DNA of 63,578 bases, filler included, from Streblomastix strix (lineage: Eukaryota): assembly GCA_008636045.1 (NCBI GenBank). It is 3 parts of 3 records of this genome, joined end to end, with 100 filler letters (N's around TTAATTAATTAA, not from the genome) between each part and the next. Parts side by side here need not be neighbours in the genome. Positions count along the whole stretch, not along the records: positions 42,480 to 63,578 come from SNRW01000397.1; 2 more parts are not named here. One strand, 5' to 3'. The notes under the pieces were generated by a model, which saw only the letters and a list, made by a program, of their open reading frames with translations, was not told the DNA's origin and did no database searches. Position numbers and translations under genes: made by a program. This document shows positions 7,681 through 63,578 of the stretch, one piece after another; within the stretch, counting starts at the first letter, position 1; every line of letters begins with the position of its first letter.

Positions 7681-9065
7681 TCCAAGTATATCTGATATTA
7701 TAACATCTATCCCTGATTCAAACGAATAAGAACAATTTCCCAGTGAAACTGTTAATTGACAAGCTCATGCATCGTAAAAATAAACAAATGTGGATTAAAA
7801 TGGAGAATAAATTAATATTTGTTCAGAATAATAAATGGATCAGTTCTGATGGTAGCATGCTTTTTAGCTTGAATGATTGTACGAGTTCCGTAACCGAATA
7901 TTTCTAACCAAAAATTTTTGAAGATTTATATTATTTAATAATTAATATCACAATATTAAATAATGAAATAATTTAAAATTTTTTCAAAAAATAATTTTAA
8001 TAATAAAAATTTAAATAAAAAATTTTATAAATTAAATTTATTAAAAATTTTTCAATTAATGAAAAAATTAAATTTTTTTATTTTATTTAAATATATGTAT
8101 AAACTAAGATTTTGTATATATATTTTATTTAACTACTGTAATTAATTATAAATATAATAGTTAATATAATTTATATCCAATGGCCAATATGAATACATCC
8201 ATAGACTGAAACCATCGGAACTGTCCCAATATCAGTTGAGGAATGCTTGGAATTAACACATTCAAGAGTAGCGGATAATTTAGTATTGGACAGAACTGAA
8301 AAATCAAAAATAAATTTAATTTTCAAATCAGGATTCGCGGTATAACACCATTTTGACCATAGCACTAAGAAAAGGCAATATTTTTACTGATGACGTAAAC
8401 AAAATGTTTATCATATAATGGGTCAGTTCCGATGGTATCATTAATGCGTAACAAATAGGATAACTGGAGATGAATATAATTCATTATATGTATAATTTGA
8501 ACTGTATATATTAACTTAACAGTAACTAATTTTCAAAATAACAAAAATATAACTGTTTACAAAGAAAATATAAAATTACCAAATTATTTATATCTTTAAG
8601 AAATTAAAATTTAAAATAGAAATTTAATTTTAACTTAAATTATTTATGAAGAATTAAATTTTTATATGCAATGTAGGAATAATTGTTAAATAAATTTTTC
8701 TAAAAAGTATGTATAGGCATTGTAATTTATGAATTATTTAATTTGCAAAAATTAGTACCATTATTTTTGTTACAACTAAAGCTAAAAATAATGCTACCAT
8801 AGGAATTAACCCAATATACGCAGTGTTTGAGATATTTAGAGGATGAGAACTTAATACTATATTAGATGATACTTACTAGAAAGCATTCACATTAGTCAAT
8901 TAAATGTGTACACTTACAAGGAATGACTACATTTTATAAAATCTGACGTGAACAATAATTAAACTTCCTTCGATTATTGGAACCTAAGAAAGTTATAAAA
9001 TCAGATAAAATATCTTAGCGATGATGAATGGGATCGAGCTGTTAGCCAAAAAGAATTAATGGAAA

Positions 9066-9859
9066 GTTATTCTTAAGATCATCCCGTTTGTTTGTAAGTT
9101 TTCTTGAAGATTAAAGAGATATCAAGTGGCGTTTCTGAAAAATCTGACCGGTTTGCGTTGGATGAAAGGAAAGATAAAACAGAAAATAGTCGATTTAAAG
9201 TAAGATTTCCTCTGATTCATTCAAGAAAATTAAAAATGGCTAAGGATGTCGAAGAAGTTGATGGTAAGGATGATATTGACAGAAACGAAGCACGTATAAA
9301 ATATGATAGAAATGTCAAAACACCAAAAAGAATGTTATTGGTTGCTTATTAATTAAAAGTATAATGAATATGAATAACTGGAATAGAAAAATGAATTTAT
9401 GTAAATAACATAATAAGAAGAAGAAAGATGCTAAGAAGACAGAAGTTAAGAACACAGATGTTAAGAAAGAAGAACCTAAAAAGACAGGAGCGAAATCAGC
9501 CCCGAAACCAAGAAAGATTGTTTGACATAGAAATCATGATAAATTAAATTATTTTTACAAATTTCATTATTAATTTGATAATATCCATTAAAATTTCATC
9601 AAAATCGTTTTGCTAACGATGAAATTCATATCAAATTTGCAAATCTAACTATAAGCATCAATTAAAATTGAAAACTAACTAAAATTTTATTGCTGCAAAT
9701 CTGAGGACATTAGAAATTAGCTTGCAAAATTATAAGACTGAAATTTCTGGCCTTTCTCAAATGAAGATGCTAAAATTGATACCATATTTGAAAAATAACT
9801 AAAACTTAATTATTAATTTTCTATATTTTTAATTTTTTCTAAAATCTCCCATAAACGTC
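9066..9859 (+). repeat. Dispersed direct repeat copy A (internally deleted version of 18016-19489)
   Basis: 9066-9410 aligns by eye with 18016-18360, and 9415-9859 aligns with 19035-19489. Both copies encode ...KKEEPKKTGAKSAPKPRKIV* and share a ~320 bp tail. Confidence 0.9.
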
Positions 9860-10354
9860 AGTAGTTATGAAAATAAGGAGAGTCTCCCACATGAAAGAAA
9901 TTAAATAAATAAAGCAAATAACTTTTGATAAAATAAATAATGGCAAATATATTATGGAAATAAAATTCTAAAATTAATTAAACTAAGACAGAAAATTCAT
10001 ATATGTATGATTAATGTTTGGCCAAATATTGAATGATTTTTGAAATGTATTAGTGAAATACATAAATGATATTCGTTATTGAATTATTTCTTTGTACGTA
10101 TGGCACTCTTCATATTCTCAAAACTACATAGGGCAATTGATGGAGTTGGTTGATGAAATTGGATTGATGGAAATTTAAAATTTATTGGAGAAATCGTTAG
10201 TGAAACCGTGAATAATTGAACATAAAATATATATATATACATGGTGGATTTGGTGGATTCAGTCATAAAACATCAATGAATTTATTGAAAAAGATACGAA
10301 GAAATGGATTAGGTGATGAATGTCTATTGACTGGATCGTGTAGATTGGGTGGAT

Positions 10355-10424
10355 TGAGTCAGAAACTTTTATAAAAAGCTGTGGCCAACAGGACAAATGG
10401 CCAATAATTGAAAAAAATAAAATT
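10355..10424 (+). repeat. Left inverted repeat of the PrimPol-helicase unit
   Basis: TGAGTCAGAAACTTTTATAAAAAGCTGTGGCCAACAGGACAAATGGCCAATAATTGAAAAAAATA matches the reverse complement of 12913-12982 with few mismatches. Confidence 0.9.
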
Positions 10425-10436
10425 GATTCAAATGTT

Positions 10437-12814
10437 TCAAACATTTGCATCTTCATTTGTATCTTCATTGATGTCTTAGTCTTCTTTTCTTAACCTATCA
10501 TATGATTTAATTAAATCTTCATTTAATTTATATATCCATGTTCGTTTTTCGTAAATTTATTTTTTTAATTCTTTGATATTTATTTTTGTGTTATAATTAG
10601 AATGGTTTTTCTTTAACATCGTATGGTTTGAATTATAGTACAATTGTGCAAGGTACGCCTTCCTTAAACGCTTGAAAATTTTATAAGATTACATCATCAA
10701 ATTATGAACGTGATACTCTTATTATGTCCTTTTTCGCCTCTGTGAATGAAATGATTCTTTAGTTCCAGCTTTCAATATTTCTGGTCATAAAATATATAAA
10801 TAAATTATTGTAAAATTCAGTAGTGAAACCATTAGATAAAGATGTGAAATACTCAACGTTTTCTCTATGAGCTGCCTTACATCTGCATGCAACATAACGC
10901 CTATCATTAACTTCTATCTTGATTGGGAAATCGTTATTGGTTACTAATATCAAATTCATAACATTTTCTGATGTTCTACGCGACAAATTTTTTTCATTTA
11001 TTCTTATTTGAATATCAGTTATTATTGACTTCAACGTATCCATGTTCGAATATCTCGCTTCTCCGAAATTTTTAAATTCATTGGCTATTCCAAGCATTAT
11101 ATCTTCCACGACAGAATTAAATTAGCCTGAAAATTCACTAATATCTGTAATATTTTAATTGAATAACCAGCTAATAATTCACATAAAACATCAGTGAATC
11201 TATTTGTGCCTATGCCTTAACTGCCTTATAATATCAATGCCACCTCTGATTTAACACCAACATTTTATATTACAAATGCAGTCCAATTTTGGACATAATT
11301 ATATTTAAATTTTCATCTTCTACTGTTATTGTTTCATATTTTAAATTTTAATAATCATCAATTAGGTCTTCATTAACTGAGGATAATTATTAATATTTAT
11401 TGCCTTAAATATATACTGAAAACGTCTTATTCATCGCTCATAAATTTTATTGCTCTCGGTTCAAATAAAAGATTATATTTTTCTAGAACATGTTTTAATG
11501 TTATTTTCTTTTATCGATCTTCCCATAATCTAACCATTTGCAACTAATCATAAGCTGTTGTTTTATTCATGTATTAAATTTTATTCTTTTTATCTACTGC
11601 ATCGTAATATTTAACTATAAATACTTAACCTCGATCACATGAAGTAGTACGTAATATTCTAGTTAAATCCTGAGCTATTGGTTCATATTCATTATATTTA
11701 TAGATTTCATTTTATAACTTTTTTTACAAGTCGAATAATTTGAAACTGTCTTTTAAATCAATTTTTTATACTTCAATTTAATTTTTACATCTTTTTTGAT
11801 TCGCTAACATAGGCATTACATATTCTTAATTATATTTTGGATTATATTTTTTAATAATTTTATATAAAACGAATGGATGTGATTATTTTTATTCATATCT
11901 TTTTTTAGCTGCATCGAATTATTATTTTGCTCTTTCCGTTAAATTATTATTAATTTTTATGTTTTCATATGTTTCCTAAATGTATTGATTATCAATTCCT
12001 TCAATATTGATTATACTATTAATTGTTGCAAATAATGGAAGTAATACTATTTCATCTTTTAAATTATGACCCTATGAGTCGTTATGTATTTCAAGACTAC
12101 TAATTCCTTTACATAACATAATCACGAAATCCTTTTTCTTATCGATTAATACTGTTGGTTGTAGTAGTGGCTTATCTTACTCATTATGCTATTTCTTTTA
12201 ATTTAGCATGACCTATCAATTTACTTCTAAATCTATTCCAAATATGTTCAAAATTTGTCACAAATCACATAAATTTAATTTATTTAAATAATCATTTATA
12301 GTTTCATATTGATATATAACTATAATTTTACTAATTTATTCGTTTTAATCTTCCATTTGTTTTGTTGCTTTAACTCTGTCATGTATTTTTGACGCACATT
12401 ACATAATCCATCTTTATTTATCATCAATACATGCAAATATATCCACATTAAAATTATCACATTTATAATCTTATATATTTGATGTTCTCAATAATTCAAA
12501 TCCATTGATATCGCAACAAATATGAAGTTCTCAATTTGCTGTTCTGATTAATCCAATATTTTAAGGCATTTTTTCTATAATAGATTTTCGAATTTATTTT
12601 AAATTAATTTATCTAAATTTTTATTTATGTCAATATCAACAACAGCAAGATTTTAACATTTTGATATGTTGATTGCTCTGCCTGAACGTAATTTACCTGT
12701 CTTGCCAATGATTGGAAATTAATTATAATCATAAGTATTCCTATACAAATTTTAAATACGTTCTTGAATTGTTAATGGTTGGCTAGTTTGTGCTCGATTG
12801 TCTTTTGACTCCAT
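10437..12814 (-). pseudogene. PrimPol plus SF3 (D5/NrS-1-like) helicase fusion, viral/plasmid-type replication protein, decayed
   Basis: N-terminus NLAVVDIDIN...MPQNIGLIRTAN*ELHIC, where GG has mutated to TGA-GAA. C-terminus ALILQGSQGIGTNRF (Walker A, K to T), MLGIANE (Walker B), LKSIITD..IRINEK and LILVTNNDFPIKIEVNDRRY (motif C, arginine finger). Several frameshifts. Confidence 0.85.
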
Positions 12815-12912
12815 TTATATATTGTTAAAATGTTGAATTAATTAAAAACAAACACTTTTAATTTTATCATAGAATTAAAATTTTTTATTTTATTTTTTTT
12901 ATTTTTTATAAT

Positions 12913-12982
12913 CTTCTATTTTTCTCAATTATTGGCCAGTTTACCAGTTGGCCACAGTTTTTTATAAAAGTTTTATGACTCA
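12913..12982 (-). repeat. Right inverted repeat of the PrimPol-helicase unit
   Basis: Minus strand TGAGTCATAAAACTTTTATAAAAAACTGTGGCCAACTGGTAAACTGGCCAATAATTGAGAAAAATAG, with two TGGCCAA boxes as in the left copy. Confidence 0.9.
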
Positions 12983-13073
12983 GAACATGTCGATAAAACC
13001 TCTGCCTGCGGATCGGAACAGTGAAATCAATAATCGGATTTATTTTACGTGAATAATTAATTACTTTTTTAAC

Positions 13074-13646
13074 ATGATTAAAATGCAGAGTCCAAAAATT
13101 CCAGAAGTAGAACCATAGTTCGAAAAAGAAATTGATCCATTTCAGCAACCCAGTTTCAACAACCCATTTCAGCAACAAGTTATCAGATGTGAAAAGTCAA
13201 CACTGTCGACAAGGCGCAGAAGTTCAATATTTGAAGAAACTTTTACTCCAAACCCTTCAATATGCAGTTAGCTGTTGGATATCATTAGTGAAAATGAGCA
13301 CATGGTTAAAGAATCAGCTCATTTCCTATTATCTGAAAATTAATTGATTCGAGTAGTTGCTCACACTTTTGATGTCCCTGAAAGTTAAATTTAATTGAGT
13401 ATAGAAGATGAAAGATATTGTGGTAGATTCTGCAATGACTTTATTCAAACATTAAATGAGATATTAATAGGGAACGTAAATGTTCTGAAGCTCGATGTTG
13501 AAAAAGTAAATTTATTAAGGGATAGCTATAAAATATGCTTATAAAAAATAAGAATAATTGCAAGTATTTTATATTTGGAGAAATTACTAATAAAATTATT
13601 TGTGCAAGTATCTAAAAGATTAATGATAGTATTAAATAAAATTTGA
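13074..13646 (+). CDS. Intronless hypothetical protein (190 aa) upstream of the fibre-like gene
   Basis: Open ATG-to-TGA frame with TAR=Gln (MIKMQSPKIPEVEPQFEKEIDPFQQPSFNNPFQQQ...). No family recognised. Confidence 0.5.
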
Positions 13647-13696
13647 TGTCATTAATAAATTATTTTTATTTTTATAAAATTGACTGAGATTTTCAT

Positions 13697-15330
13697 ATGC
13701 TTGATGTTATTTTAAATCATAATTAAGTGCTTTATGGTTCAAGTAAGTATAACACTATTGGCTTAATTAACGAAGTAAAAAATATTGAAAATTTAATAAA
13801 TATAATTAATGAAGCTCCAGAACCTTATAATCGTGAAGAAATTGATGAAATGTTAGATAAAAAATTAAATATATCTGACTAAATCGATGTATATACCAAA
13901 TAAGAAGATGATGCTCTGCTGTTGTTGAAGGCAAATAAAACAGAGCTCATTGATGCATACTCGAAGACTGAAGATTATGAATTGTTAGCATTAAAATTAA
14001 ACATTACTGAATAAATTGATGCATATTCAAAGACAGAAGATGATGCCCTACTCGACGACAATTTAAATATTTCTGATTAAATTGATGCATATTCGAAGAC
14101 ATAAGATTATGCTCTGCTGCTATTAAAGGTCGATAAATCAGAGCTCATTGATGCTTACTCGAAGACTAAAGATTATGAATTGTTAGCATTAAAATTAAAC
14201 ACTAGTGATTAAATTGATGCAATTTCGAAGACAGAAGTCGATGCCCTACTCGACGATAAATTAATTATATCTGATTAAATTGATGCATATTCTAAAAAAG
14301 AAGATGATGCTCTGCTGATATTGAAGGTCGATAAAACATAATTGGATATCTATGTTGATTTAACATCAACTCAAACGATAACAGGTCAAAAATAATTCAG
14401 AATAATTAGTGCTTCCAATATATCAAAATAGAATAAAAATGATGCTTAAATTCTTCTCATTGGTGGAGGTGATATGTTAGTAAGTTCATTAGTATCACAG
14501 CCATAACTATATGAAGTACGAGATATTGCTCCTGGCAAATCAAAAGGGTATGTCATTGCAACTACGGATGAAATGAATACTTGGATGGAAGATTAGGAAA
14601 ACATTGCAAAATTAGCGATTGGTGGTAATTTATATATAGTTGAAAACTAAGTCATGGATTATTGGCGGGATGGTACTAGTCTTCGAGCATTAAAAACAGA
14701 ACTGCCAGATATGAGCAATGTCATGACCATTCTTGGAGCTGCTACAGGAGGAAGAAATGCAATAACAGATTTATCATTCAGTGAAAACACACTAATACCT
14801 GCGAAAAATAGTAATTTTGTGTCTACTGGAAATGATAAATCTATTATAGGGATGAAATACATTTAATACAACTATTCACTAAGTCGGAATATCTGTATAA
14901 AATTACGATAATAATTCTGTATTTCTTGCAGGTGGTGGTGTTAAGGCAATATAGGACATAAACGCAAGCGTTGATTTATCAAATTATTACAATAAATCAT
15001 AAACATATTCATAAACTGAAATAGATAAAAAATTAAATCTAAAATTGATCATTTTCGATTAAATTGATGTTTATTCGAAGATATAGGATAATGCTCTGCA
15101 GTTATTGAAGGCTGATAAAACAGAGCTAATCGATGCATACAATAAAACAGAAGTCGATTCTCTATTCGACGATAAATTAAATATATCAGATTAAATTGAT
15201 GCTTATACTAAGACATAGGATGATATGTTGCTGTTGTTAAAGGCTGATAAAACTGAGCTCATTGATGCACATTCGAAAACTGAAGCCGATGCCCTACTCG
15301 ATGATAAAATAAATAAATTTTTGACTAAAT
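13697..15330 (+). pseudogene. Phage/virus fibre-like repeat protein, frameshifted and 3' truncated
   Basis: Many IDAYSKTEDDALLLLKADKTEL / IDAYSKTEVDALLDDKLNISDQ repeats, plus YVDLTSTQTITGQKQF, ILLIGGGDM, VFLAGGGVK and VDLSNYYNKSQTYSQTEID, which are typical tail-fibre repeats. +1 frameshift near 14858. Confidence 0.7.
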
Positions 15331-15399
15331 AAAATTTATTTTAATTTAATTTTTATCAATTTAATAAATATATACTATTAGACTATTATTTTTCCATAA

Positions 15400-16860
15400 T
15401 GTCAAATAAATTTCTATAATTATAATTATTATACATATCGGTATGCGCATTTACAAACAACTTCATGAAGACAGTCTTAATAATCTGATAGTAAATCAGC
15501 AGCATTCTATTTGAAATAGTCATTAGTCCATTTATCTCGAACTATTGTGTTAGATAGAGTCTTGTAACTATCATCAGCACTTGGTCCTGTGTGAGAGTAA
15601 TGATATTCATCTAATGTTTGTTAGTGCTTATAAACTTATTACTTTTTCTAGTATATAGGTCCAAAACTAATATATACCTTGTAAGGTTTAGCTTTTTCTA
15701 ATTCATATACCTAGTCAATTTTTTTCTTGAGTTGCTATAAGTCATAGAAATGATTATAATAATATTAGATTTATTTTTTTTTATTGAATATACCTTTTGA
15801 ATTCATTAATTCATCAGATAATCCTTCGATACTAGCTTCATTTTTCTCCTAGAATTTCTTGTGTGCCTGAGTTAATGTGATATAACAGGCTTATAAGTTT
15901 TATGGTGTGTATATAACGAATACCTTCTATTCGAGTTCTCTATTTTTATTTAATTATTGTGTTTTTGTTATATTTGGTTCATTAAAGTGATCCTTATGTA
16001 ATTTATAATATTCATCATTATGATTTTTCACTCTTTCATTAAATTCTTTAGCACCTAATTTTATGTCTAGGTATTTGAGAATTTTAAATGGTTTTTCAAC
16101 CGTTCTCTTATATCTTGAATTGATGAGTATCTGTTATAACTGTTCATAGAGTTTATGTCTCTTCCATTTGCCCTAAATCACTTTAGCTGCATTTACTGAC
16201 TATTTCATTAGTTATTATGCTAAATACATTCGAAAATGCTGTTGGATTAGTATAGCTGTTTAATTCTATTTCTCCAATTTGTCTTACAATTCTTATATCT
16301 CTTATTGATGTAATTGTTCCTATTAATCTAATTCTTATTAATGTTTCAATTATTGTTCAGCTAATAATTGATTATAATTCTCATTAATTTACTTAGGTAA
16401 TTGAATCTAATCATCTAAATCAAACTCTTCTCTCAATATGTTGTTTATTATTTATAGTGACTTTTGCAATTAATGTATCTAATTAGTGATTAATTGTTTG
16501 GTTTATAGAAACTATTATATACGCTATCTTCAACCACTTTCTTCAAATTTTTATTTGTAATTAGCTCTGTATTTATCAGGATTGAATAGATCATCATCCG
16601 AATTGTCAGTTTAGTTCAAATCATTGATGATATCATCAACATTTTTGACTAATTGTGGTTTATTTCCCTTTAGTGTTCAACAATTGCTATAATTCATTAA
16701 CTTCTTCTTTTATTTGTTGCAATTAAGGTTACTCAACTTATATTAACTATTATTACTACTCATTATCTGTTTCTACCAACTCCGTTGGCTGCATAAATGC
16801 TATTATTGGTTTGATTTATTCATATTATTATTGTTTGTCATTTTTTTCAGCAAAAATTTG
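15400..16860 (-). pseudogene. Decayed intronless Gln-rich ORF with two IQ-like motifs; possibly the N-terminal region of a Polinton-type protein
   Basis: Coiled coil, AILIQQHFRMYLAQ, AAKVIQGKWKRHK and ...IDQVYELEKAKPYKVYISFGPIY.... Several frameshifts; boundaries approximate. Confidence 0.35.
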
Positions 16861-18015
16861 ACTTTTTAAATGCAAAATTTTCAGATGTAATAGTTATGTA
16901 GCCTTAGTAATGTAATCGTTAAAATTCATTAGTTAACATATTTCTTAATTCAACTACAGTATGATTGGGTTGATTTAGAACTTACAATTGATCTAATAAA
17001 TTTTAAATCTAAATTCTACTCATTCTGTACTTCTCCGACACTTTAAGTAAAGGAAAAAAACTCATTTATTTTGAGTTAGATTTTGTTTAGTTCGTTATTT
17101 TTATTTTTTAATAAATGACATAAGAATTGAAGTTGTTATTAATGTAAATCTCATCAATCAAATCAGTTAAAGAAATGCGTTAATTTACAAAAAAGAATAA
17201 GGAAATATTACAAACTGCAAGAGCATTCACATTGAATAAATATATAACGATATTATTATATAAATTTTATTATAAGAATAATCAATTAAAGGTATTTCAT
17301 GTAAAAGAATGTGTAATACGACGTTGTAAGTAAATTGAATTATTGCCATAAGCAGCAAATTGTTTAAGTGATTAATCCGAAAGTACTAACGAAAATTCTG
17401 ATGCCAACTCTGTTGACTGCATAAATGCTAATACTTTGCATTCTGGCTTTTTGAGTAATTGAATAAATCATTTTTATCTATAATATTTTTAATTATTGAT
17501 ATATAAAGTATTCTCACATTTGAAATTATTTGAAAAATTTTAGTAATTTATTTCATATTATTTTAACCCGTAATCCCACAACACTATGCTAATTAATGTA
17601 CATATTTGTAATATATATATTGATATAGACTATTCAAATAAGTAATTGAAATAATTAGTCTATTAGCCAGTGAAGAAATTAATAGATAAAATTGATAAAT
17701 TTTTTTCATAAATTTTGAAAATAAGACATTTATTTTTCAAATAATTTTGAATAATTTTGAAAAATCTTTAAATATTAATTCATATCATTAACACAATACA
17801 TTGATTAATGTGTTCATTTTGTCATAATGTTTAAGGGTATAAATAGCGTGAATAAAACAGTAGTATGTGATAAATAAATATACATAATATTTATGAAATT
17901 GTCACCAGACGTGGATATTATGGTGAATTGGAGGTATTTTCACCAGTCGTGGAGATTATTGGTACGATTAGCGTGGCAGAATTAGTGCTCTCTGGGTCCA
18001 TCCAAATATATTATT

Positions 18016-19489
18016 GTTATTCTTATGATCAACCCGTTTGTTAGTACTTATTCTTGAGGTATAAAGAGATGTCAAGTGACGATTCTGAAAAATCCGACAG
18101 GTAAGCATTTAATGAAAGGAAAGATATAACAGATAAATGTCGATTTATAGTAAGATTTCCTCTGAATTATTAAAGAAAATTAAAACCGGTTAAGGATTTC
18201 GAGAAAGTAGATGATAAGGATGGTATTGACAAAAAAGATGCACGTAGAGATTATGACAGAAATGTCAAAACATCAAAAAGAACGTTATTGGTTTAGTTTA
18301 TTAATTAAAAAATATAATTATTATGAAAAATTGGAAGAGAAAAATGATCTTTAAGAAGTAAATGAAGAAGTAAGATAAAATAGATTAAAAAGGTTTGAAT
18401 TAAAGATGGAAAAAGAGATACAGACAGCAATAGATAAACAAAATGAACTTAACATAACAGAACCAAATCTGCTCAACCCGCCTCGACCATTATTAAAAGC
18501 AATAAGAAAAAAATCTTCAATATAAAATATAAAGAATATTGAAAAAAAACTTTCAATAGATTAAAAGTAGATATAAAACCATAAGAATAGATTAGAAAAT
18601 GAAGTCGAAAAATTAAGAACGGATCCATTATATAAAGATGCATCTATAAATGATATAAAATAAGAAATATTTAAAAGAAGAAAGAACTAAATATAAACTA
18701 ATAAAAGATGAAATGTTAAAAAAATAAGAAAAGGAAAAGAAACATCAGTATAAAAGTGCTGAAGACTAAAAAAAAGAACTTATATAAAAAATATAATAAG
18801 AAGAAGATAAGAAAGCATAAGGTAAGAAGACAGAAGCTAAGAAGACAGAAGCTAAGAAGGAAGACGCTAAGAAGGTTTATATTAAGACGACAGAAGCTAA
18901 GAAGACAAAAGCTAATAAGGAAGAAGCTAAGAAGGAAGACGCTAAGAAGGCTAATGTTAAGAAGGAAGATGCAAAGAAAGCAGAAGGTAAGAGGACAGAA
19001 GTTAAGAAAGCAGAAAGTTATATGACAATAGCTAAGAAAGAAGATGTTAAGAAGACAGAAGCTAAGAAGACAGATGTTAAGAAGGAATATGTTAAGAAAG
19101 AAGAACCTAAAAAGACAGGAGCTAAATCAGCTCCGAAACCAAGAAAGATTGTTTGACATAGAAATCATGATGGGATAAATTATTTTTGCAAATTTCATTA
19201 TTAATTTGATATTATCCATGAAAATTTCATCAAAATAGTTTTGCTAACTTTGAAATTCATATCAAATTTGCAAATCTTACTATAAGCATCAATTAAAATT
19301 GAAAAATAACTAAAATTTTATAGCTACAAATCTGAAGACATTAGAAATTAGCTTGCAAAATTATAAGACTGAAATTTCTGGCATTTTTCTAATGAAGATG
19401 CTAAAATTGATATCAAACTTGAAAAATAACTAAAATTTAATTATTTATTTGCTATATTTTTAATTTTTCTGAAATCCTTTATATACGTC
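18016..19489 (+). repeat. Dispersed direct repeat copy B (long version)
   Basis: Shares both ends with 9066-9859 and holds ~670 bp that copy A lacks. Confidence 0.9.
18069..19156 (+). pseudogene. Lys-rich protein ending in ~20 pentapeptide repeats (KKTEA/KKEDA/KKEDV), frameshifted
   Basis: MSSDDSEKSDRQ... start. A 15-bp tandem unit AAGAAGACAGAAGCT at ~18820-19110 reads KKxEA and ends KKTGAKSAPKPRKIV-TGA. The Arg-rich ORF in the track is the wrong frame. Confidence 0.55.
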
Positions 19490-30262: not shown

Positions 30263-31720
30263 ATGAGCGAGATTGTGCATATATAGCTAGGACAATGTGG
30301 GTACGGTTTTGAATTTATATAAATATTGCTGTGATTAAACAAATATTTAATATTTAACATTCGATGCGCGAAATTTCAATAAATCATAATTTGTAATTTT
30401 TTACTTGATAACAGCAATTAGGTTGGATCAAAATTCTGGGAAACTATTTCTGATGAGCATGGTATTGATCCATCTGGTTTCTTTCACGGAGAGTCTGAGC
30501 TTTTGCTTGAAAGAATCGAAGTTTACTTCAATGAAGTGGCAGGCGGTAAGTACGTTCCTCGTAATATCAGTGTTGATCTCGAGCCAGGAACGATAGATTC
30601 AGTGCGTGCTGGACCATTCGGATAACTATTCTGTCCAGATAACTTCATCTTCGGACAGACAGGAGCTAGAAACAACTGGGCGAAAGGACATTACGTAGAA
30701 GGAGCATAACTAATCGACAATGTTCTTGATGTAGTCCGTAAGGAAGCAGAAGGATGCGACCATTTGCAAGGTTTCTAGATCTTCCACTCACTTGGTGGAG
30801 GTACAGGAGCTGGAATGGGAACTCTATTACTTGAATAGCTCCGTGTTGAATATCCAGATCGTATGATGTGCACTTTCTCAGTTATTCCATCACAAAAAGT
30901 GTCTGATACAGTTGTTGAACCATACAACTTTGGACTTTCGTTGAAGTACATACTAGACAATGTTGATGAAGTAATATGCATTGATAATGAAGCCTTATAT
31001 AATATCTGCTTTAAAACACTGAAGCTTACAACACCAACATATGGAGATCTGAACTATATTATATCACATACATTGAGTGGAGTAACATGCAGCTTAAGAT
31101 TCCCTGATTAACTCAACACAGATCTTCGGATGCTTACTATGAACCTTGTTCCTTTTCCTAGACTAAAATTCTTATTGATTGGATAAGCACCTATAAGATC
31201 ATGAGGAAGTTCAGCTCCATATGTAGGATGGAGATTAATTGATTAGATTCCGTATGTCTTTGATTCTAAGTGTCAAATGTCTGCAGTTGATCCACGACTT
31301 GGAAGAACCTTTTCTGGGTATTGTACTATAAGAGGACGTATCTCTATAAAAGAAGTTGATTAATTGATGATGAGTTGTATTGATAAAGATTCGAAATAAT
31401 TTGTGAAATGGATTCCAAGCAGTACCAAATGGTCAATATGTGATATCCCTCCAAAATGCATAGGTAAATCTACAACATTCATTTCAAACTCAACTGCAAT
31501 ACAAGATGTGTTCAAACGATTCTCCTAATAATTCAACACTTTGTTCAAACGTAAAGCTTTCTTGCATTGGTATACTGGTGAAGGTATGGAATAAGAAGAA
31601 TTCACAGAAGCACAATAGGTTATGTATGATCTGATTAATGAATATCAGCAGTTTCATACCTCGTTTTCAATTAGTGATTAAACAGAAAATAAAATAGATA
31701 AGATCAATGAGACAACATGA
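30263..31720 (+). pseudogene. Divergent beta-tubulin paralogue with one in-frame TGA
   Basis: MSEIVHIQLGQCG|NQVGSKFWE, DLEPGT, NNWAKGHY, HSLGGGTGAGMG, VVEPYN and KAFLHWYTGEGM. Intron 30301-30414; 448 codons. TGA at 31202-31204 replaces the Arg of the SRGS motif. Confidence 0.9.
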
Positions 31721-37585: not shown

Positions 37586-40500
37586 TCACTTCTTTCCTAT
37601 TTAAGAAACATCCCCATATACCATCTATACATCATCATCCATATTTTGTTCGTCTAAAATAATCAAAGGAGTTTTTTCATTAACAATAAATATACTTTGA
37701 GCTGGTGATGAATCTGGAATTGAAAAATGTTGATGGTGTCTGTTTGAATGTGTATGCGTATGTGTATCAGAATTAGAATGATGAAGTGATTAAGGATTAA
37801 TAAAAACTTAATTTTAATTTGAATTTGTATCTAAATATGGAATTTGATGGTTTGATATTGATGTTTATTGGGACAAATGTTAATATCCAAAAGGAGGAGG
37901 AGGAAGAATTGTTACTGGAGAAGAGAATAATGATGAAGAAGATTAATATTATTATTAATATTATTATTAAGATTATTATTAAGATTATTGAAGTGGATGA
38001 GATAAAACATCGCTGTTGTTTAAACTGACTGTAAATTTTAATATAAAAAATATTAATATTAAAATATAATAAAAATTAAAATTTATTAATAAATAAATTA
38101 TTGTATTGATAAAACATACATTATTATTCATTTGGTAGATTGTTCCTATTCCCATAGTCGTATTCAATAACAGATCTGCTCAAAATATGTCTCATTCTCT
38201 TTCTACCTTTCTTTGTACTGACAACCTGCAAATAATAAATAGAAATATAAAGATATGATAAAATATTTAAATTAAATTAATTTTAATTATTATTTAATAA
38301 TTGAATAAATTTATTTATTTATTTATTTCTATATATTATTAGTTATGTTTTAATTAAATACCATCTTCCATTTATCTTCAGAATATATTATATGTTCAGG
38401 AGTTACTGGAATTGTCAAGAAATGTCTAAAATCAATCGCATTATCCAAAGAAGATGGAATTTCACGATGTTTTCCTGATAAGATAATGAAACATTAAGAT
38501 GTAAAATTAAAATTAAGTAAATTCAATTATTCAAATATAAATATATTTTTATTTCCAATCATTATACCAAAGAACATCATCATAACAAAAATAATTCTCG
38601 ATAAATCCTTAAAAAAAGGCCTTTGATTAGATCCTGAATATGATGCACACCCTAATGATATGCCAACATTTCCATATGCTGACACTAAATCAAATGCGAT
38701 GCGAAGTGCAGGAAAAGTGACATTATGAGGTTTGTTTATTTATTTTATTTCTTTACGGTTGTTATTCTTATTTTATTATTATTGTAATTATTACTATTGT
38801 GAATAAGAATCTGTTTGAAATAGTGATAAATTAAGAATGCATTAATTGTTCAAGGTCTGGTTAAATGATTATAATTCTTCAGTTATTACTTCAATCTATT
38901 ATTTAATCTCTAATTACTTCTACTTCACTTCAACTTCACTCATTCCAATTCTATAATCAATTTCCTTATCTTCTCCTTTCAAAAACTTCTCTTCCATAAC
39001 AAATACAGCAAATAAAGCAATCAGAATCCACCATAGATCTCGACCTTCAGTTGTATCTTGTTATTGTCTGAATAATTTGACTATGAAGGAAATTGCAATC
39101 TTCCATTTCTCAGCTTATGACTTCTTGACTTTAATTGGACGATGTGGTTTTTGTAGTTATTTTTGTTGGTGTTATTTTTTATTCAGTTTATTTGTGTTGT
39201 TTTATTCGTTTGTGTTGATATTCTGGTTATTTGGAGTTCCTAATATATTATTATTGTTATCTGACTCTATTGGAACATTTGGTGATTAATCTTGATCCTG
39301 AGCAAAAATGCCATATTATATGGTTGCTTATCGACTTACATATTTCTTCCTTCTATTTTTAGATGCTTTAGAGTTTCTTTATTAATTATTTATCAATCCT
39401 TCACTGATATCATCATCTTAAGTTACATTCTAATGTGAATGTTTAATTTTTTCTTTCATCTTCTATTATTATTAATCATTATTTATTGAATCTTTCTATT
39501 ATTACCCTTAAATTTATTATTCTTATTCTTTTTTATTCTCTTCTTTATCTTCATTAAAAACTGATAGTTTCTGGAGTTGTAATAAACTTCCTCTCGAATA
39601 TTTATTAGATTATGTCTTTACTTCATCATATTATGACTTTTATTATGTTTGTTATTAAAATGAAGATGGTTAAGGAACTAAAACTGAAGTATATTACGTT
39701 GATAATGACTGATTTTATTATTATTAATTTTATTATTGTTGTTAATGTTAATAATTTAACAACGAAGCATGATATGTTAATTCCAACTAATCAGATTCAC
39801 CCGCCTAAGAAATCTTCTTCTATGATTTTCTCTTCGAATGGGATCTAGATAATTACTGTTTTTATTTCTATTATTATTTCTATTATTTATTTTATAATAG
39901 AAATAACTATGAAGATGGTCTTGTGAAAGACGGTGATGATGTTTATTGAGAAGTTTGAGGAGAAAATGTGAGTTTGCGAAGTGAAGAAGAAGAAGAATAA
40001 ACTGTCGGACTTGAAAAAATGTTTATTTGTTACTAATTTTATTACAATTAATTTTACTATAATTAATTTTATTATAATTAATTTTATTACTAACTTTAAA
40101 ATTGACTTTACTATTATTGATATTATGTTAAAGTTACATCATATTAATGCTTCTAATAGTTCTGAAGCAAAGAAGAAGTAGGAGAAGATGATGAAGTTGT
40201 ATATGCTTAGAAAGTAGCTGGTGAATATCGTTATTGATTCTATTATTAATTATTAGTTAATTATTATTATGAAGTTGATTATGATTATAACTGATTGCTG
40301 AATCTATCCTGCTTGAATCCAACAATCGTTTTGCTTCTCTGCTTAAACTTCAGTGTTTTGTTTAATTCTTATTTTTCTAATTCTTTTTGCTTCTCTTTTT
40401 CTTTCTTTTATTTCTAATTATCAGTATCTATGAAATCTTCAACATTCACAGCAGTTTCTTTCAGAGCCATAATAAAAGGATAAGGTCCAAAAAACATTAC

Positions 40501-42379
40501 TGCTATCAGAATCCACAGTACAGCAACATGCAATTTATCCTCTTATAGGAAAGAAAAACCAGCTGCGCGTGTGTTTATGCAGAATACAAATGCAAGTATG
40601 AAGTTTCCGAATCCAGAATAATCTCATTATTTTTGTTAATATTTCAGTGTTTTCCAGTCAATTCCCAATATTGGGATTAGTTGGATGAGTGTCATTATTC
40701 CGAATAGATATGCAAGTGTTCGTGTTTACACTGAAGAAAACATGTGTGTGTAACACTGGGGAAATAAATATAGAAATAAAATACAGAATTAAATAAATAA
40801 GAAATAAATAAATTAATATTAAATTAAAAATTTATTTATTTTTTTTTCTATGTTTCTATTTATGAATTTAATATAATAAACTTTACGAGATGAGACCATA
40901 AGATAATGATAAATTGGCCTTTGACTACCTCCTTTATCTTTTGTTATCTGAATAAATATTAAAATAAAAAGAAAATTTAAATTCATTATATTATAATTCA
41001 TTATCTTTTTATATTTACATTTTCTCAATCATTTCAAATATATAATTTCTCCACTCAATTACTCATTTACCCAAACCTCAATCATCAATCTAAAGAACAC
41101 CGGGAACATAGTATGTCCAGCAGCAATCAGTAATCCAATAGGAAGAATAACTGCCCATTAACCCCTTATATCTGATAAGCTCCCGTAATCCAGAATAGAC
41201 AGCATCGCATTGTTGAATGAAGATACAACTGCGAATATTGAGAATCTCACAGCTGATATTCCTTAGTCATCCAGTTGATATGACAGAACTTCCTGCATCC
41301 AGGGTAGTAGTGATGATGCTGTATATATCCATATGAAACCTACTATGTATATAATGAATATATACAACCAGACATACTTGATGATCTTACCCATGGCTGT
41401 ATATTCATAGATTGAGTCATATAGAGGTTCATCACAAAGGACATCTGGTGTGTTTATTAGAGGGAATTATTGTTATGGGGATTGATGTTATTATTATACA
41501 TTTGATTATTATTATGTTGATTATTATGTTGATTATTATTATATGGTTTATTAAATAGTTTATGATTATTATTATTATTATTATTATTCTAATTGAAATG
41601 ACTATTATGATGCATGTTGATAAGACGTTGATGATAAAATCGGATAAATAGTTGGTTATTATTAATGTGATTTGTGAGGCTGATGTTCAACACCTTACAA
41701 CTATTCAATAGCTTTGAATTATCCATTTTTGTCTGATTCACTGAAGAAATTCAAATTATCTTTTTTATCTTATTTTTCTTACTAGTGGTCTTTATTAGAA
41801 TCATATGAGCTTGAGTTTTCTATTCCAGTTAATAATGATGATGAAGATGAAGAAGATGATGATAAATATAAGGAAAGTGATGTTTGAGATGAAGAAGAAG
41901 AAGATGATGATGATGAAGAAGAAGATGATGAACTTTCAGAATCATCAATTGTTGAATTATCTTTATTTTCAATTTTATTTCCAGTTGTTTCTTAATTCTC
42001 TATTTTAACAGCAAAATCAATTTTTGAAAATTACTCTGTTTCATCATCAATTATTGTGTCTTTTTAACTCCATTTCTACTTTTCTTATTTTATTTACTGC
42101 TAAATTCCTTCTAATGTCTGGCTTTTATCTATTTTTTCATATGATTCATTTGATGCATCTTATGAGTTTAAATTGGTTTATTCTTTCTTACCTTATTTTT
42201 TAATGAGTTCTTCATCTTTGTTGAGCAGAAGATATTAGTCATCTTCTTTTTCATCATTATTTTCTCTATCTTCAATTTTAATTTTCTTTTTTGATATTTT
42301 TTAATCTTTTTATTTTTTATCAATTTTTTCTCTTTTTTATTTTTTCTTCAATTTTTCCTTCCTTCTTCTTTTTTCCTTC
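37586..42379 (-). CDS. Trk/HKT (TrkH family) cation transporter with long poly-Gln loops, 5' end missing
   Basis: FAVVSSFNNAM, LIAAGHTMFPVFFR, CYTHMFSSVQT, INTRAAGF, AFDLVSAYGNVGISLG and GKHREIPSSLDNAI are Trk pore-loop motifs. Confidence 0.88.
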
Positions 42380-42479
42380 NNNNNNNNNNNNNNNNNNNNN
42401 NNNNNNNNNNNNNNNNNNNNNNNTTAATTAATTAANNNNNNNNNNNNNNNNNNNNNNNNNNNNNNNNNNNNNNNNNNNN
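42380..42479. other. Artificial contig-joining linker
   Basis: N44-TTAATTAATTAA-N44. Confidence 0.97.
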
Positions 42480-44173
42480 CTGCAGCAATTTAACCTATGG
42501 ATTCTGGAATAATTCATAGTGTGAAAAAGCGATACAAAACTATAATTACTTAAAGACTTTTCGAAGATGCTTTGTCCAATACACCATCAACGTTGGATCT
42601 GTACTAGGCATGTGTTTTAATTAATAGAGTCTGGGCTGAAACAAAAGCAAGTGTAATTCAACATTGTTTTGCTAAAGCTTGGGGTAATAACATTTTTGAT
42701 AAATTGCATGTTGACATTGAATTTGAATCAAAAGAATAAATTGAGTAAGAATGCTAAGATTTATAAGATTTTGACGAAAAAAATAATGAATAGACAAGAG
42801 TTGCACTTACAGAATAGGAAATTGTTAACTATGTATTAAACAAATATCAGAAAGAAAACTAAGATGAATAACTAGAGGAAGTTGGAAATGAAGTTTGTAC
42901 TACACAGCAAGCTTATCATGCTCTTCATCAAATAAAGATATATTTAAGTGATGAGAAATATCTTAACGTTATAAATGATTTAAGACGTGTTCTTGAGTTG
43001 TAAAGGGAAAATTTATTAACTTAATCAAATTTAAATATCTTCTTACATCAGAATAATTAGAAAATGATAGTTAATGAAAAAACAATTGAAATGAAATAAA
43101 ACAATAATGAAGATGTAAATGCAACTGGTACTTAATAAGAATAACAAGAAGATTATCTTACCTAACTTCATAAAATGTATGTATCTATTTGCATCTCGCA
43201 AGAAAATGAAGAATCCGATTATGATAATTAAGATATTGAGATAAGTGATCATATGCAAACTCTAGAAAATTCAAACATTGTTCAAAGTACAAACGAAAAT
43301 AAATCATAGATAAACCATAAATTAATAAAATCTGCAGTTAGCAAACTTACACCTATTCCAATAATAAAAGAATCTCATTCAATTTCAAGTAAACCTATAA
43401 TAAAAACCAAATAGTCATAACTCATTACACAATAAAAAGAAAAATTGAATCAAACTAACAAACTTTCTCCTTCAGAATTCTTTAAATATAGTGCAATTAA
43501 TAGGTTTCGCTCCGTTTGGCAATCATAATATGAGATTTTTGACAATTAAGGACAGGGAAATTGCTTATATTTGTTTGATTAAATAGTAGAAAGTTAATTT
43601 ATTTTAAAATTTAATTTGCATTTTATTTATTTTTACATTTAATTAATATTATATATTATTAGTGCGCTTTGCCACTAGCTTGGATTTGATTAAGAAGATC
43701 ACGATAAACTAAGAGAATCATCTGTACATTTTTTGTTAGAACATGCTGAAATGATACCTTTTGTGACAGATCTGAATGAACTTGCTGAAGATAGAATACT
43801 AAAATTGACCGAAGGAGACTGGGGTGGATCGGAATCATTGTAAGCTGTAAGCACACATTTTGAGTGTCCAATTGCGGTTCATGATATTTATGGATAAATA
43901 ACTTGGATTGGAAAAAATTAAAAGCTAGAAGCATTACACGTTGGGTTTATTAACGAAAACCATTACGTATCCATGAAACTTAAAGCGAAGAACTAAACAG
44001 AACAAATTAGCGAAATTCAAACTGGGGATGAATAGCTTATTTGCGATAAAGTTGATGAGAGTGACCAAAATACGAATATGGATGACGATTGCTATATTAT
44101 TGATTAATCTTAGCAAAGCGATAATGATGATGAAGATAATGAGTTTGATAACTATAATCGCTTTGGCTTTTGA
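42480..44173 (+). CDS. pogo/Tigger-family DDE transposase (C-terminal part) fused to an OTU cysteine-protease domain
   Basis: AAIQPMDSGIIHSVKKRY...VWAETKASVIQHCFAKA (DDE_1 end) runs without a TGA into DNQGQGNCLYF|ALCHQL...WGGSESLQAVS...LHVGFINENHYVSM (OTU). Intron 43573-43662; TGA at 44171-44173. Confidence 0.88.
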
Positions 44174-44349
44174 ATTTATTTATACATTTAATTAAGATTC
44201 AATAATTTATCATTCAAAATTAATCTTTTTAGATTCGTCTTAAATAAATTATAAATTATGAGTGCAAAATTATTATATCTAAAATGAGCTGTTTTATTTA
44301 AATTACATTTTCATAATAAAATGAAATAAGTTATTAATAAATCAACATA

Positions 44350-47300
44350 TTAATCAATCAGTATTTTTCGTTGATAATTGTATAACTGTTATAACTATTC
44401 TAAGTATTTTTTTTGCTTCGGCCAACTGAACATCTGGATAAACTTCCATTAATTAAATTCTCTTTCTGATCATCAAATCAATATTGCATTTAAATAAATA
44501 AAAATTATGAAACATATTACTTTCTTATGTGAATTCTTAATTTCAATTTTTACTCATTCAAACTCTGGCTTAAATGATCTGATATCCAAATTTCTCCCCT
44601 TAAACTATTTCTTTTCCAAAAGAATTAAAATTTACATAAAGATACTTAATTCAAAAAATTAATATCTATGACATTTTGTTACCAATTCTAACATATCATA
44701 TTCTTGCTTTTCTATTTTTCAATTACACAAAGATAATTTATGTTGAATTAGAAATACGAATTTCACAAATATTACTGCAGAAATTTGATCTAATATATAC
44801 AAAATTTTTATTTTACTCAAGAAATTTTGTATATCACTGGTTTATTTATAATAATAATTATAACTTATATAAAATATTTCATTTCACAAAAATTTTTCAT
44901 TTGAATTGATTGTAATCTATTTAGTTTGGAATAAGAGGGTGCTTTGTTAATGTCGTTTAATAAAAATAATTATTTAAATTATAATTTTCAAAGTTCTTAA
45001 TGGATATCTATTAGCAAATCATTAAATTTTTTATAGATTAATTAACATTGTTTAAGTAACTTTTCTAATGATTTCAAAATGTTGAATCATTTTTTTAAAA
45101 ATATCTTTCATTTTATATAGACCTTTCTGATTATAACTTTAAATCATATAGATAATTGAATTTTTATCAAAAATACAAAAAATTAAGAATATATATTTCA
45201 ATCTGAATTTTTCTTAATTATAAAATCGACTAAAAGCATTTAATACTGAATTTTTGATTATCAAAAACAGTTACACCTCTAGTTAAAAATAAAAATTATC
45301 AGACAGTTCAGATAGAAATTTGTTTTATAATATATTTTCTTGTTTATATTTTAAAAATAAGGAAGTTTGATTTTATTAATTAACAATATATTGCAACCTA
45401 AAAGTGAATCATCTCTTGCAAATTTATTTAATCCTTCTATTGAAAATTTTCTTAAAAATTTTCTCAAATATTCTCTACAAATATTGTTTATTTTTTAGAG
45501 ATCTTATTAAATTACATTAAACTTAATCAAAATTATTGATATAAAATATTTACTACAAAACAAGTATTTTAGATGTTTTAATCTAATTTACCAAAAAATT
45601 ATTTATTTTTTGATTGAATTTTTCAAGCTTACACGTTACAATCAAACAATTATAATTGAGTAATAAAAAATATTAAATTTAATATAAATATACATTATTT
45701 ACAAAAAATATTCTTACAAATATATGTTTATACTATTGAAACTAAATATAAATCAATTTATTTAAAAAAATTTAAATATTTTTTCAATTAATGACTTGAT
45801 TATAGTTTTATTAAGCAATTTTAATAATTTATCTTTTATTGTTGAAGTTTCTATTCTGAAATTATAATTTTTTCAAAAAAATCAAATTGCATTGTATATT
45901 TAGCGCAACAAATTCAAACTTTTGCCGAATAACATTTTGTTTTGATAATTATTTATTTTTTTAAAAATAAGCCTGTGAAGCGGAGCAAAATTACTCAATA
46001 AAATCAACAGATATTGCAAGATTCACACAATGTTGTTCCGTATATAGTCTTAATACCATCCAAAACTTTGCAAGTTTATTAACTTTATACATATTTTAAA
46101 TAAAATCAAGAGAATCGTATTCATTTTAATGTATAAAAGTTACATATATGCGTATTGGTTGAAAAATTCATCAATCAAATTAATCTACATTTGAATTGAA
46201 GATATTACAATTGAATAAATGATTGTATACGTTATATTTTTTTAATTGAAAATTTTGAAAGTATTGCTTTTATGACTATATATTTTTATTAACAACAAAA
46301 TGATAATTTAGATATGTATGAAAATTGAAAATTCTTAAAATAATAACAAAATTTTTATAATTAAGAGGATATTTAACGTGTTGAAAATATATTTATTTTA
46401 GGTATCATGTATACAAAATATAATATATTAACATTAAATATTAAAAACTTCTCAAAAATTTAGGAAAAATCAACATCTTTAAATTATATAAAGATAATTT
46501 ATTTAAAAAATATTTATTATTTTATGAAATATATAATTTAATTTAATTATTAATTAAATAATATTTGTATTATATTTGCAGTTTATTATTAAATTTAACA
46601 ATTTTTGAAAAGAAATTATTAAAAAAAAATTCGTTTAAAAATTATTGTCTCAAATTAATTATAAGAAAATTACCTATTTCTAAGTTTTTGAGAAGTGTAC
46701 TAATTTAAATGTTTATTGATTATATTTTATATGTCATATATATAAAGCAAATATATTTTCAATTCATTAAATATATTCTAATTCATAAAATTTTGATATG
46801 GTTTTAAGAATTTTCAATTTTTATACATTTTAAATTTATCATCTGAACGATTTCCATCGAACCTAAACAAATTTATTTTGATTAATTTAAATATATCGTA
46901 AAAAGTTTCTTTATTCTCTGAAATATGTTCGTCCTGCATTAAATGCTTATTTATGAAGAAAATCAATATTAAATTTACAAATAACTGTAAATAAATAAAA
47001 TTTATATGAAGATTTAAAAAAATTGGATTTCAGTACAATTCCATATAAAACTTTTTGCATTATTAATGCTTTATTAATGAAGTAAATAATAAAATTATAT
47101 TAATAAATTTTTATTATCTTATATATATATAAAGGACTTGGAAAAAGTCCTTCTGGCAAACTTTTCTTTGGATTGAGAAACAGTGACATTATATTATATA
47201 AACATATACATATATAATAGTGAATAAAAGAAAGTAAAAAATAAAAGGTTTTATTGCTTGATTATTCAACCAATAAATCCTATAATTTACATTTTTTTCG

Positions 47301-48150
47301 ACTTATTATCATACGTATATAAAAAAACATAATATCAAACCATTGTTTCTCAAGCTAAAGAAAAGTTCGCTAGACGGGTTTTTCAGGGAACGATATATAT
47401 ATATATATATTACATTAATTTTTCTTTTAATCTTTAATTGAATTTATTGAGCATATATTGTAGATTCAGATTCAATAACACCAATTATTTAATTGAATTT
47501 TTCTTGCATTCTTGAATTTTTGATTAAAAACAATAGAACATTTGATTCTGTTTTTACACTTTCAACTTGTTATTTTTGCTGCTGAACAGAAGATTGTGTA
47601 TTTTATTAGTTTATTTTTCCATAGATGCATGTATAAGTTCTAAGAGTTTCAACTAAAAAACAACTTCCACATCTTTCAAAATAGTAATATGGATTCTTTA
47701 ATAATATTTAAATATATTCAGTTTCTACTTTTTTATTAGCTGTACAATTAAACGCTTTATGTTATCCATCTTTATTACAACTAATTGCGTTCGATTACGT
47801 TTATGGTTAGTAATATTTATAAGTTAATAACTAAAAATAATAAGTATTTTGAAGCATTCCTTACGAAACGTTAATAAAGTATAAAAGAAATCTTATAACT
47901 ATTAAATTTTTTTACAAGTTTTGAAGGTGATTTTTTTCGTTTTTAATGGAAACGTATTAAATTTTAACATTGTTGAATTTTTAAAAGAAAATAATTTATT
48001 GCTGAGATTTCAATGAACACGCAAATCCTTAAACAATTCATTGAATAAAATTTAATGATTGCATCTAATTTTTTATTGTAAATGATTTCAAATAATAATC
48101 CTTAAATAAAATTTAGAAAATTATCACTATGCAGTTAGAAAGCGGAGACA
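44350..48150 (-). other. Putative cargo region with unrecognised minus-strand coding segments
   Basis: Plausible open frames with TAR=Gln at ~44354-44700 (spliced, ...GEIWISDHL...EVYPDVQLAEAKK) and ~47480-47800 (...KNPYYYFERCGSCFLVETLRTYTCIYG...). No family recognised. Confidence 0.3.
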
Positions 48151-48283
48151 CATAATATTAACTCAAATAATAAAAATAAAATATTATATCATATTTAAAT
48201 TAAATATTTTAATAAAAAAAATTATTTTTTATTTTAAAATTTTTATTATTTATTAATATAAAAATTTTAATATTAAAATTTTT

Positions 48284-48425
48284 CGTACGAATTAAATAAA
48301 ACAAAAATTCGAATTATCCGATGAATTTTATACGAAATTATTCCAACATTGAAAAAATTAAACTAAAAATTTGAATTATCCGAGTGTGCGAATTAAACGG
48401 CGTACGAATTAACCGAGTTCTACTG
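48284..48425 (-). repeat. pogo/Tigger terminal inverted repeat with subterminal transposase-binding repeats
   Basis: Minus strand TA|CAGTAGAACTCGGTTAATTCGTACGCCGTTTAATTCGCACACTCGGATAATTC. The motif (C)GAATTAWMCG occurs at 48310, 48373, 48389 and 48405, with a partial copy at 48288. Confidence 0.85.
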
Positions 48426-48427
48426 TA

Positions 48428-58999: not shown

Positions 59000-63578
<4,579 letters not shown>

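Follow-up and report, generated by a model that had tools for sequence, protein, structure and literature searches.

OTU domains are known in Helitrons and Ulp1 domains in Mutator elements, and a C-terminal OTU domain on a cut-and-paste transposase has been described for Ginger1 (Bao, Kapitonov and Jurka 2010, excerpts of PMC2836005). For the Helitron VTD, cleavage of K48 and K63 chains has been reported and a function in blocking the degradation of transposition proteins has been proposed, while Erven et al. 2022 state, in the excerpted part of their article, that transposon OTU domains had had no activity test to date (PMC9741609). The transposase of Drosophila pogo carries a C-terminal PCNA-binding domain, according to the excerpted text of PMC4231638, which cites Warbrick 1998.

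Here we describe a locus at which the tail of a pogo DDE domain and an OTU domain share one reading frame; judged from the sequence, the existence of this frame is confirmed. The DNA stems from Streblomastix strix, an oxymonad protist of the termite gut, and the window, i.e. the whole analysed stretch of 63,578 nucleotides including filler, is AT-rich eukaryotic DNA with two N-filled gaps. With the pogoR and Tigger elements, as portrayed in excerpts of PMC7386202, the locus has in common a DDE_1 domain, DD31D spacing, a putative right-hand TIR starting CAGTAGAAC, a putative TA target and a C-terminal PIP-like motif, and its predicted protein length lies within the published pogo range of 300-977 aa. 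It differs from these elements by about 345 extra residues past the PIP motif, which hold the OTU domain, and by an implied element size above the 1.2-5.2 kb given there. With Ginger1, as excerpted from PMC2836005, it shares the cut-and-paste type, the C-terminal OTU domain, introns and a proposed role of ubiquitin removal in transposition. Ginger1, however, has a Gypsy-integrase-like DDE core together with YPYY, a zinc finger and GPY/F, whereas the core in the window is Pfam DDE_1, so that the OTU domain was captured independently of Ginger1. Helitrons and Helentrons likewise bear a deubiquitinase domain within the transposition protein, but they are rolling-circle elements and their active tested domains are VTDs, not OTU domains (PMC9741609, excerpts). 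Finally, in the terms of the excerpted OTUD survey of Mevissen et al. 2013 (PMC3705208), the domain has the minimal fold of ~150 aa with Cys loop, WGG motif and His loop that is found in OTUD3 (4bou), OTUD1, OTUD5 and yeast Otu2, but unlike the OTUD subfamily it reads QGNC for DGNC and HYVS for HYDS, and it stands behind a transposase.

The joining of pogo and OTU is new among the papers searched, whereas the capture of OTU domains by transposons is itself already known. The term 'OTU' occurs 0 times in the text and 8 supplement files of Gao et al. 2020 (PMC7386202), a term search of the pogo survey PMC7325037 returned OTU or protease 0 times, and in a fungal fusion screen OTU is paired solely with GTPase domains. 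The sequence-only reading of this DNA knew of no pogo-OTU fusion, and in agreement with it no pogo/Tc1-OTU fusion was found in the papers searched, a scope lying outside Repbase, Dfam, InterPro, subscription journals and bioRxiv supplements.

The reading frame and its transposase half

The plus-strand frame 42482-44173 begins right after the N runs of the adjoining gap and has no stop under code 6, 38 of its 563 codons being TAA or TAG read as Gln, the assignment under which long frames make sense across the window. The proposal of one uninterrupted frame with TAR as Gln, leading from QPMD into an OTU fold, thus holds, and a Pfam scan of the code-6 translation finds both a DDE_1 tail (21.8 bits) and an OTU domain (25.5 bits). 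The intervening linker, put at about 160 aa before, is open and measures about 150 aa. The frame runs from the pogo DDE tail via the PIP-like motif and the linker to the OTU domain, and the features of the locus are as follows.

42380..42479, no strand: N-filled gap (N runs 42380-42423 and 42436-42479) hiding the left end and the first ~320 transposase codons
42482..43021, plus: C-terminal part of a pogo DDE_1 domain with helical tail (Pfam DDE_1; alignment to pogo matches)
43022..43045, plus: PIP-box-like motif QSNLNIFL, where pogo transposases usually end
43046..43486, plus: low-complexity linker of ~150 aa in which the fusion frame is under selection (synonymous bias; no in-frame TGA)
43487..43572, plus: OTU exon 1, which encodes the N-terminal helix together with the Cys loop Q-G-N-C; a homologous exon is inferred in a divergent family
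43573..43662, plus: predicted 90-nt phase-2 spliceosomal intron (GT..AG, 10% GC; best of 28)
43663..43990, plus: OTU exon 2, WGG motif (43820) and His loop H-Y-V-S (Pfam OTU; OTUD3 match)
43991..44173, plus: acidic C-terminal tail and TGA stop (from translation; P0003 has it too)
44174..48310, no strand: ~4 kb of AT-rich DNA without a recognised protein, mostly near 18% GC
46300..46842, no strand: nested palindromic (MITE-like) insert with inverted arms, coinciding with a depth spike in run X1
47120..47405, no strand: second nested palindromic MITE-like insert with (TA)n ends (self-match; fold z-score -8.3)
48311..48427, minus: right TIR of pogoR/Tigger type with four sub-repeats, outermost base 48425, then TA (48426-48427)

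On the far side of the gap, which cuts it, lies a TrkH-family cation transporter gene (38164-42379, minus) with very long Gln/Ser-rich inserts, the 5' part of which is not evident. A further minus-strand frame (30335-31204) resembles what we take to be a divergent beta-tubulin.

QPMD occupies residues 4-7 of the frame, with the third catalytic Asp at 42500, and the DDE_1 match (E 1.5e-4; cut-off 22 bits) covers only a fragment of the domain. The missing N-terminal half is supplied by database protein P0002, deposited as 'putative CENP-b protein 1 [Streblomastix strix]', which equals the first 50 residues of the frame at 100% and adds 320 aa upstream of this 50-aa overlap. P0002 reaches 80.8 bits with Pfam DDE_1 and contains three catalytic aspartates, D191, D295 and D327 (the first two seen in P0002 alone), in a DD31D spacing that is also found in its relative P0006 and that falls within the ranges of both Tigger (DD29-36D) and pogoR (DD29-59D). 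Together with the DDE_1 tail and the alignment to pogo, this spacing backs the earlier assignment to pogo/Tigger. With the N-terminal half of P0002 the full-length fusion is predicted to comprise about 850 aa (~853 aa) after splicing. A Pfam match to CENP-B_N or HTH_Tnp_Tc5 is absent from P0002 at E 0.1, P0006 scores 21.7 bits with HTH_Tnp_Tc5 (cut-off 22.2), and the alignment of P0002 to P0061 covers the HTH region of the latter. In a DDE tree of 32 rows three S. strix sequences group together (100/97 with P0047), a tree that contains no labelled references and thus makes a choice between pogoR and Tigger impossible.

The motif QSNLNIFL, correctly described before as PIP-box-like, starts at 43022, 173 aa past QPxD and at the usual pogo terminus: a PIP-type motif is present in 23 of the 36 other pogo matches having at least 170 residues after QPxD, and in 19 of those 23 it lies at most 14 aa from the C-terminus. 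The pattern used, which we assume to represent PIP boxes, permits Leu in the last place, as QSNLNIFL requires. As a PIP-like motif is the usual end of a pogo transposase, everything past 43045 is an addition to the standard pogo protein.

The OTU domain and its active site

The OTU domain is ~25% identical to outside homologues, its Pfam score is above threshold (E 2e-5; cut-off 23.3 bits), and OTUD3 (4bou) is the best match of a PDB sequence search (E 0.004). A model guided by the alignment, with a pLDDT of 67.5 that drops chiefly over the intron (residues 22-53), is closest to OTUD3 in a fold search (E 1.9e-6, TM 0.65/0.76), followed by DUBA, a viral OTU, OTUD1 and Otu2; a fold from the single sequence was discarded (pLDDT 41). 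Thus, a profile match and a structure match were both found, the two kinds of evidence on which the sequence-only reading had staked its OTU assignment.

An intron at 43573-43662, just after the Cys, had been proposed as well, and it is the top candidate when predicted from sequence. Of 28 GT-AG pairs that keep the frame it scores best (88.1 bits, as compared to 75.4 for the next pair and 74.7 without splicing) with an OTU profile derived from 9 matches outside Streblomastix; as the members of this profile were found with the same query, the ranking alone counts and not the bit scores. Splicing at these positions yields an ungapped Cys loop, and the predicted intron has 10% GC vs 29-36% in the exons on either side. 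Gene models P0003, P0005 and P0078 use the same acceptor, and P0008 and P0009 start at it. Run X1 is a termite-gut metagenome read set containing the stretch, and among the 12 indels listed of 22 relative to it one, a 1-nt deletion, lies within the predicted intron, none in the exons and 11 past the stop. The sequencing runs listed for the stretch are termite-gut metagenomes and include no RNA run, a listing that says nothing about expression.

Searching 1.84 billion representatives with phmmer yielded 74 matches, of which the top seven all belong to S. strix, and none of 77 database proteins (these 74 and 3 cluster members) contains both domains. Among 6,769 candidates of a word-indexed protein search the whole frame matched only P0002, the OTU region matched none of 104, alignment of the DDE part to proteins of 673-2,000 aa yielded 0 of 7,355, and locus scans of JGI metagenomes, prokaryote genomes and viral contigs, in which back-translation probably misses TAA/TAG Gln, revealed no relative. 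Within S. strix close copies, which may be alleles, are located on three other contigs (12,555, 7,083 and 1,081 bp). Further DDE families are represented by P0004 (45%), P0006 (46%) and P0047, and OTU exon-2 fragments by P0007, P0008 and P0009 (56%, 38% and 45% identical); a single species therefore harbours at least four divergent families of DDE and four of OTU domains. The first exons of P0003, P0005 and P0078 are transposon DNA in shifted frames, which explains the absence of the fusion and of the catalytic Cys from the databases. Read in the next frame, the mis-called exon 1 of P0078, a member of the P0008 cluster, is compatible with the end of exon 1 in the window at 10 of 16 positions, the best fit among the roughly 26,600 positions compared; its last residues read G-[ADGV]-G-[NS]-C. 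This fit suggests that the Cys and the intron are common to a family only ~38% identical; the P0008/P0078 family most likely keeps DGNC, so that the Gln would be specific to the family or copy in the window.

The Cys (TGC at 43562) and His (CAT at 43961) of the window align to the Cys and His of OTU homologues. Cys, His and WG motif had been called intact, which they are, but this does not extend to the active site as a whole, as the Val at His+2 had been overlooked; the replacement of DGNC by QGNC, on the other hand, had been recognised and is due to a CAG codon (Gln) at 43553. All five S. strix sequences that cover the His keep it, and all five have Val at His+2, where 11/11 outside matches have Asn, Ser or Ala and OTUD3 has Asp. 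At Cys-3 the Gln of the window faces an Asp in 9/9 outside matches having the Cys loop. Position His+2 is, as we take it, that of the third residue of the OTU triad (Asp/Asn). The window thus has neither of the canonical OTUD residues, i.e. Asp at Cys-3 and Asp or Asn at His+2, and in P0003 the His loop reads HFVS.

With the acidic or amide residues beside Cys and His replaced by Gln and Val, catalytic activity is uncertain, although the replacements would weaken the case for a canonical OTUD enzyme rather than that for a protein that works like an OTU. According to excerpts of PMC3968130, the Asp of the Cys loop acts via the amide of its backbone, and a third catalytic residue is missing from TYMV PRO, which makes activity plausible, if not assured, and on the basis of the sequence we regard an active deubiquitinase as fairly probable. 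Fusion and transposon might also be real while the OTU domain serves as a ubiquitin-binding module with weak or no catalysis, or as a protease that cuts its own long protein in the manner of viral OTU proteases, a reading that we consider rather unlikely. Gln at Cys-3, Val at His+2 and HFVS in P0003 would suit it, the TYMV OTU, devoid of the third residue, also processes its polyprotein (excerpts of PMC3968130 and PMC5695851), and the long unstructured linker could contain a cut site. A non-catalytic domain is, however, at odds with the conservation of Cys and His across families ~38% identical, with a second family that most likely reads G-D-G-N-C, and with the outside OTUD3-like matches that tolerate Ser or Ala at His+2.

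The putative transposon end and probable mobility

The right TIR is found 4.25 kb behind the stop codon. From 48425 inward it reads CAGTAGAAC, and the same 9-mer opens at least 8 TIR entries (2 pogoR, 6 Tigger-like; 21 of 32 places, Gao et al. Table S1). A host-like minus-strand frame, rich in Ser/Asn, lies beyond the TA and runs straight into the repeat, an arrangement that would fit a transposon insertion. A partner of this TIR is absent within the window, including the stretch between TIR and gene; of the paired TIRs starting CAG and the two TAs by which pogo elements are defined, the right TIR and its TA are seen, and the left end lies in the gap. We infer that this TIR is the end of the element under study, which would then measure 6.9 kb or more (about 7 kb) and exceed the published 1.2-5.2 kb, a range that is typical of pogo, not diagnostic.

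The AT-rich DNA at 44174..48310 is probably the long 3' region of the element. Among the 40 of its 46 ORFs (>=60 aa) that were scanned none has a Pfam match above cut-off, and a second ORF was thus dismissed as unsupported by Pfam. Two further possible ends, near 44386 and 45268, were discarded, as they have no flanking TA and do not match the end at 48425; at 45268 an isolated CAGTTACACCTC resembles a left pogo-type end. The summed contig depth of run X1, which does not equal copy number, is 76-248 outside the one spike and shows no step at the stop codon.

The window contains further repeats. Inverted repeats of 60 nt (10363-10422 and 12914-12973; 88% complementary, 2.5 kb apart) enclose a 281-aa minus-strand frame (11370-12215) and look like another TIR element, a 300-nt direct repeat (9391-9690 and 19022-19321; 89% identical) recurs at a distance of 9.6 kb, 13688-15346 is a coding array of 66-nt tandem repeats, and a long (ATT)n tract (63393-63578) closes the window. 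The coding array and its neighbouring frames, about 7300 to 19300, resemble what we presume to be decayed Polinton-like virus DNA.

That the pogo-OTU locus is a mobile element is likely. Its domestication into a host gene, i.e. a CENP-B-like DNA binder joined to a deubiquitinase, with the various records being alleles of different Streblomastix lineages and the TIR being foreign, appears improbable. Purifying selection and an intron would suit a host gene too, the TIR is 4.25 kb away with its partner unseen in the window, and pogo has repeatedly been domesticated (PMC4231638 and PMC7386202, excerpts). Yet the catalytic Asp is conserved at each of the three positions, a single species contains at least four divergent DDE families and four OTU families, and the TIR, which fits in type and orientation, lacks a partner between itself and the gene and seems to break up a host-like frame. 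Moreover, several records, e.g. P0003 and P0047, look degraded, and the substitutions of P0003 at otherwise conserved sites suggest that some copies are decaying.

The predicted fusion protein and its proposed role

In the linker TGA is absent from the fusion frame and occurs 3 and 7 times in the two remaining frames. As an open stretch of 143 codons has a chance of ~6% at the local TGA rate of 0.02 per codon, it is the selection test and the other copies, rather than the openness of the frame, that carry the fusion claim. The test uses the 17 exon differences among the best-supported 40 of 623 relative to run X1, a small sample in which several linker changes stem from the same two run X1 contigs. 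In the linker, the fusion frame renders 6 of 8 differences synonymous (as compared to 2.15 expected; P=0.002), the other five frames only 0-2; within the same best-supported 40 of 623, 3/3 differences are synonymous in the OTU domain (P=0.03), 1/2 in the acidic tail and, in the direction opposite to the linker, 0/4 of those listed in the DDE tail. Gene models P0003 (92%) and P0005 (91%) start as a shifted-frame reading of the DDE tail (42831-42890) and lead, via the same acceptor, into OTU exon 2, so that both halves are linked on two other S. strix contigs; the span 42831-43816 fits the 1,081-bp contig of P0005. In addition, divergent run X1 contigs span 42954-43303 and 43298-43562, i.e. the junctions of PIP motif and linker and of linker and OTU domain. 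The claim of an in-frame, C-terminal OTU domain thus finds support in the open frame, the Pfam match, the linkage in P0003 and P0005 and the selection on the linker, and translation of the fusion is very probable.

Two separate products, with a transposase mRNA that ends or splices close to the PIP motif and an OTU domain that is expressed by itself or is a passenger fragment in frame by chance, are quite improbable. The ~6% chance of an open linker, the PIP motif as usual pogo terminus and public gene models that split the halves may be taken in favour of this arrangement. Also counting against a fusion, the divergent DDE model P0004 stops immediately ahead of the PIP position and carries no partial label. 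There is, however, no stop past the PIP motif, the synonymous bias resides exactly in the fusion frame (6/8 vs 0-2 elsewhere), and the split gene models look like annotation errors, as their frames are shifted and the catalytic Cys is dropped. An assembly chimera, conceivable in a fragmented and gapped assembly, is hardly credible in view of the linkage on two other contigs and the junction-spanning divergent contigs in the read set.

We are thus inclined, with some reserve, to see in the locus the 3' part of a repeated pogoR/Tigger-type transposon that encodes a DD31D transposase with an intron-split OTU domain, the latter likely stripping ubiquitin and allowing escape from the proteasome. 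According to this proposal, a host OTUD-type gene would have been the source of the OTU domain and its intron, both acquired by extension of the frame past the usual PIP-box terminus, a step that may be easier when TGA is the only stop. The mobile pogo element would give rise to one spliced mRNA from which the 90-nt intron is removed, and the protein would bind its own TIRs and cut and paste at TA. The PIP-like motif might dock it on PCNA, and the OTU domain, relying on the Cys-His pair for catalysis, would strip ubiquitin off the transposase or the transposition complex, which would thereby escape proteasomal destruction. Whether the transposase or its complex is the main substrate is evenly balanced in our estimate, this choice following from the analogy to Helitron VTDs and the in-cis arrangement. 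More tentatively, and doubtful in its entirety, an old oxymonad lineage of unusually long pogo elements may have taken up an intron-bearing host OTUD-type deubiquitinase once, helped by the single-stop code, and may have kept it in at least four families (38-56% identical) as an active, non-standard Cys-His enzyme brought to PCNA by the PIP box, which would make it the first OTU-armed member of Tc1/mariner/pogo.

Gene callers hide such fusions in fragmented genomes with alternative codes. As the OTU domain is small and separable and has an odd active site, the question of its activity suits a routine assay. With this locus pogo joins the unrelated transposon groups that have independently gained a ubiquitin- or SUMO-removing protease, and the pogo case lends weight to the view that hosts generally restrain transposition by means of ubiquitin.
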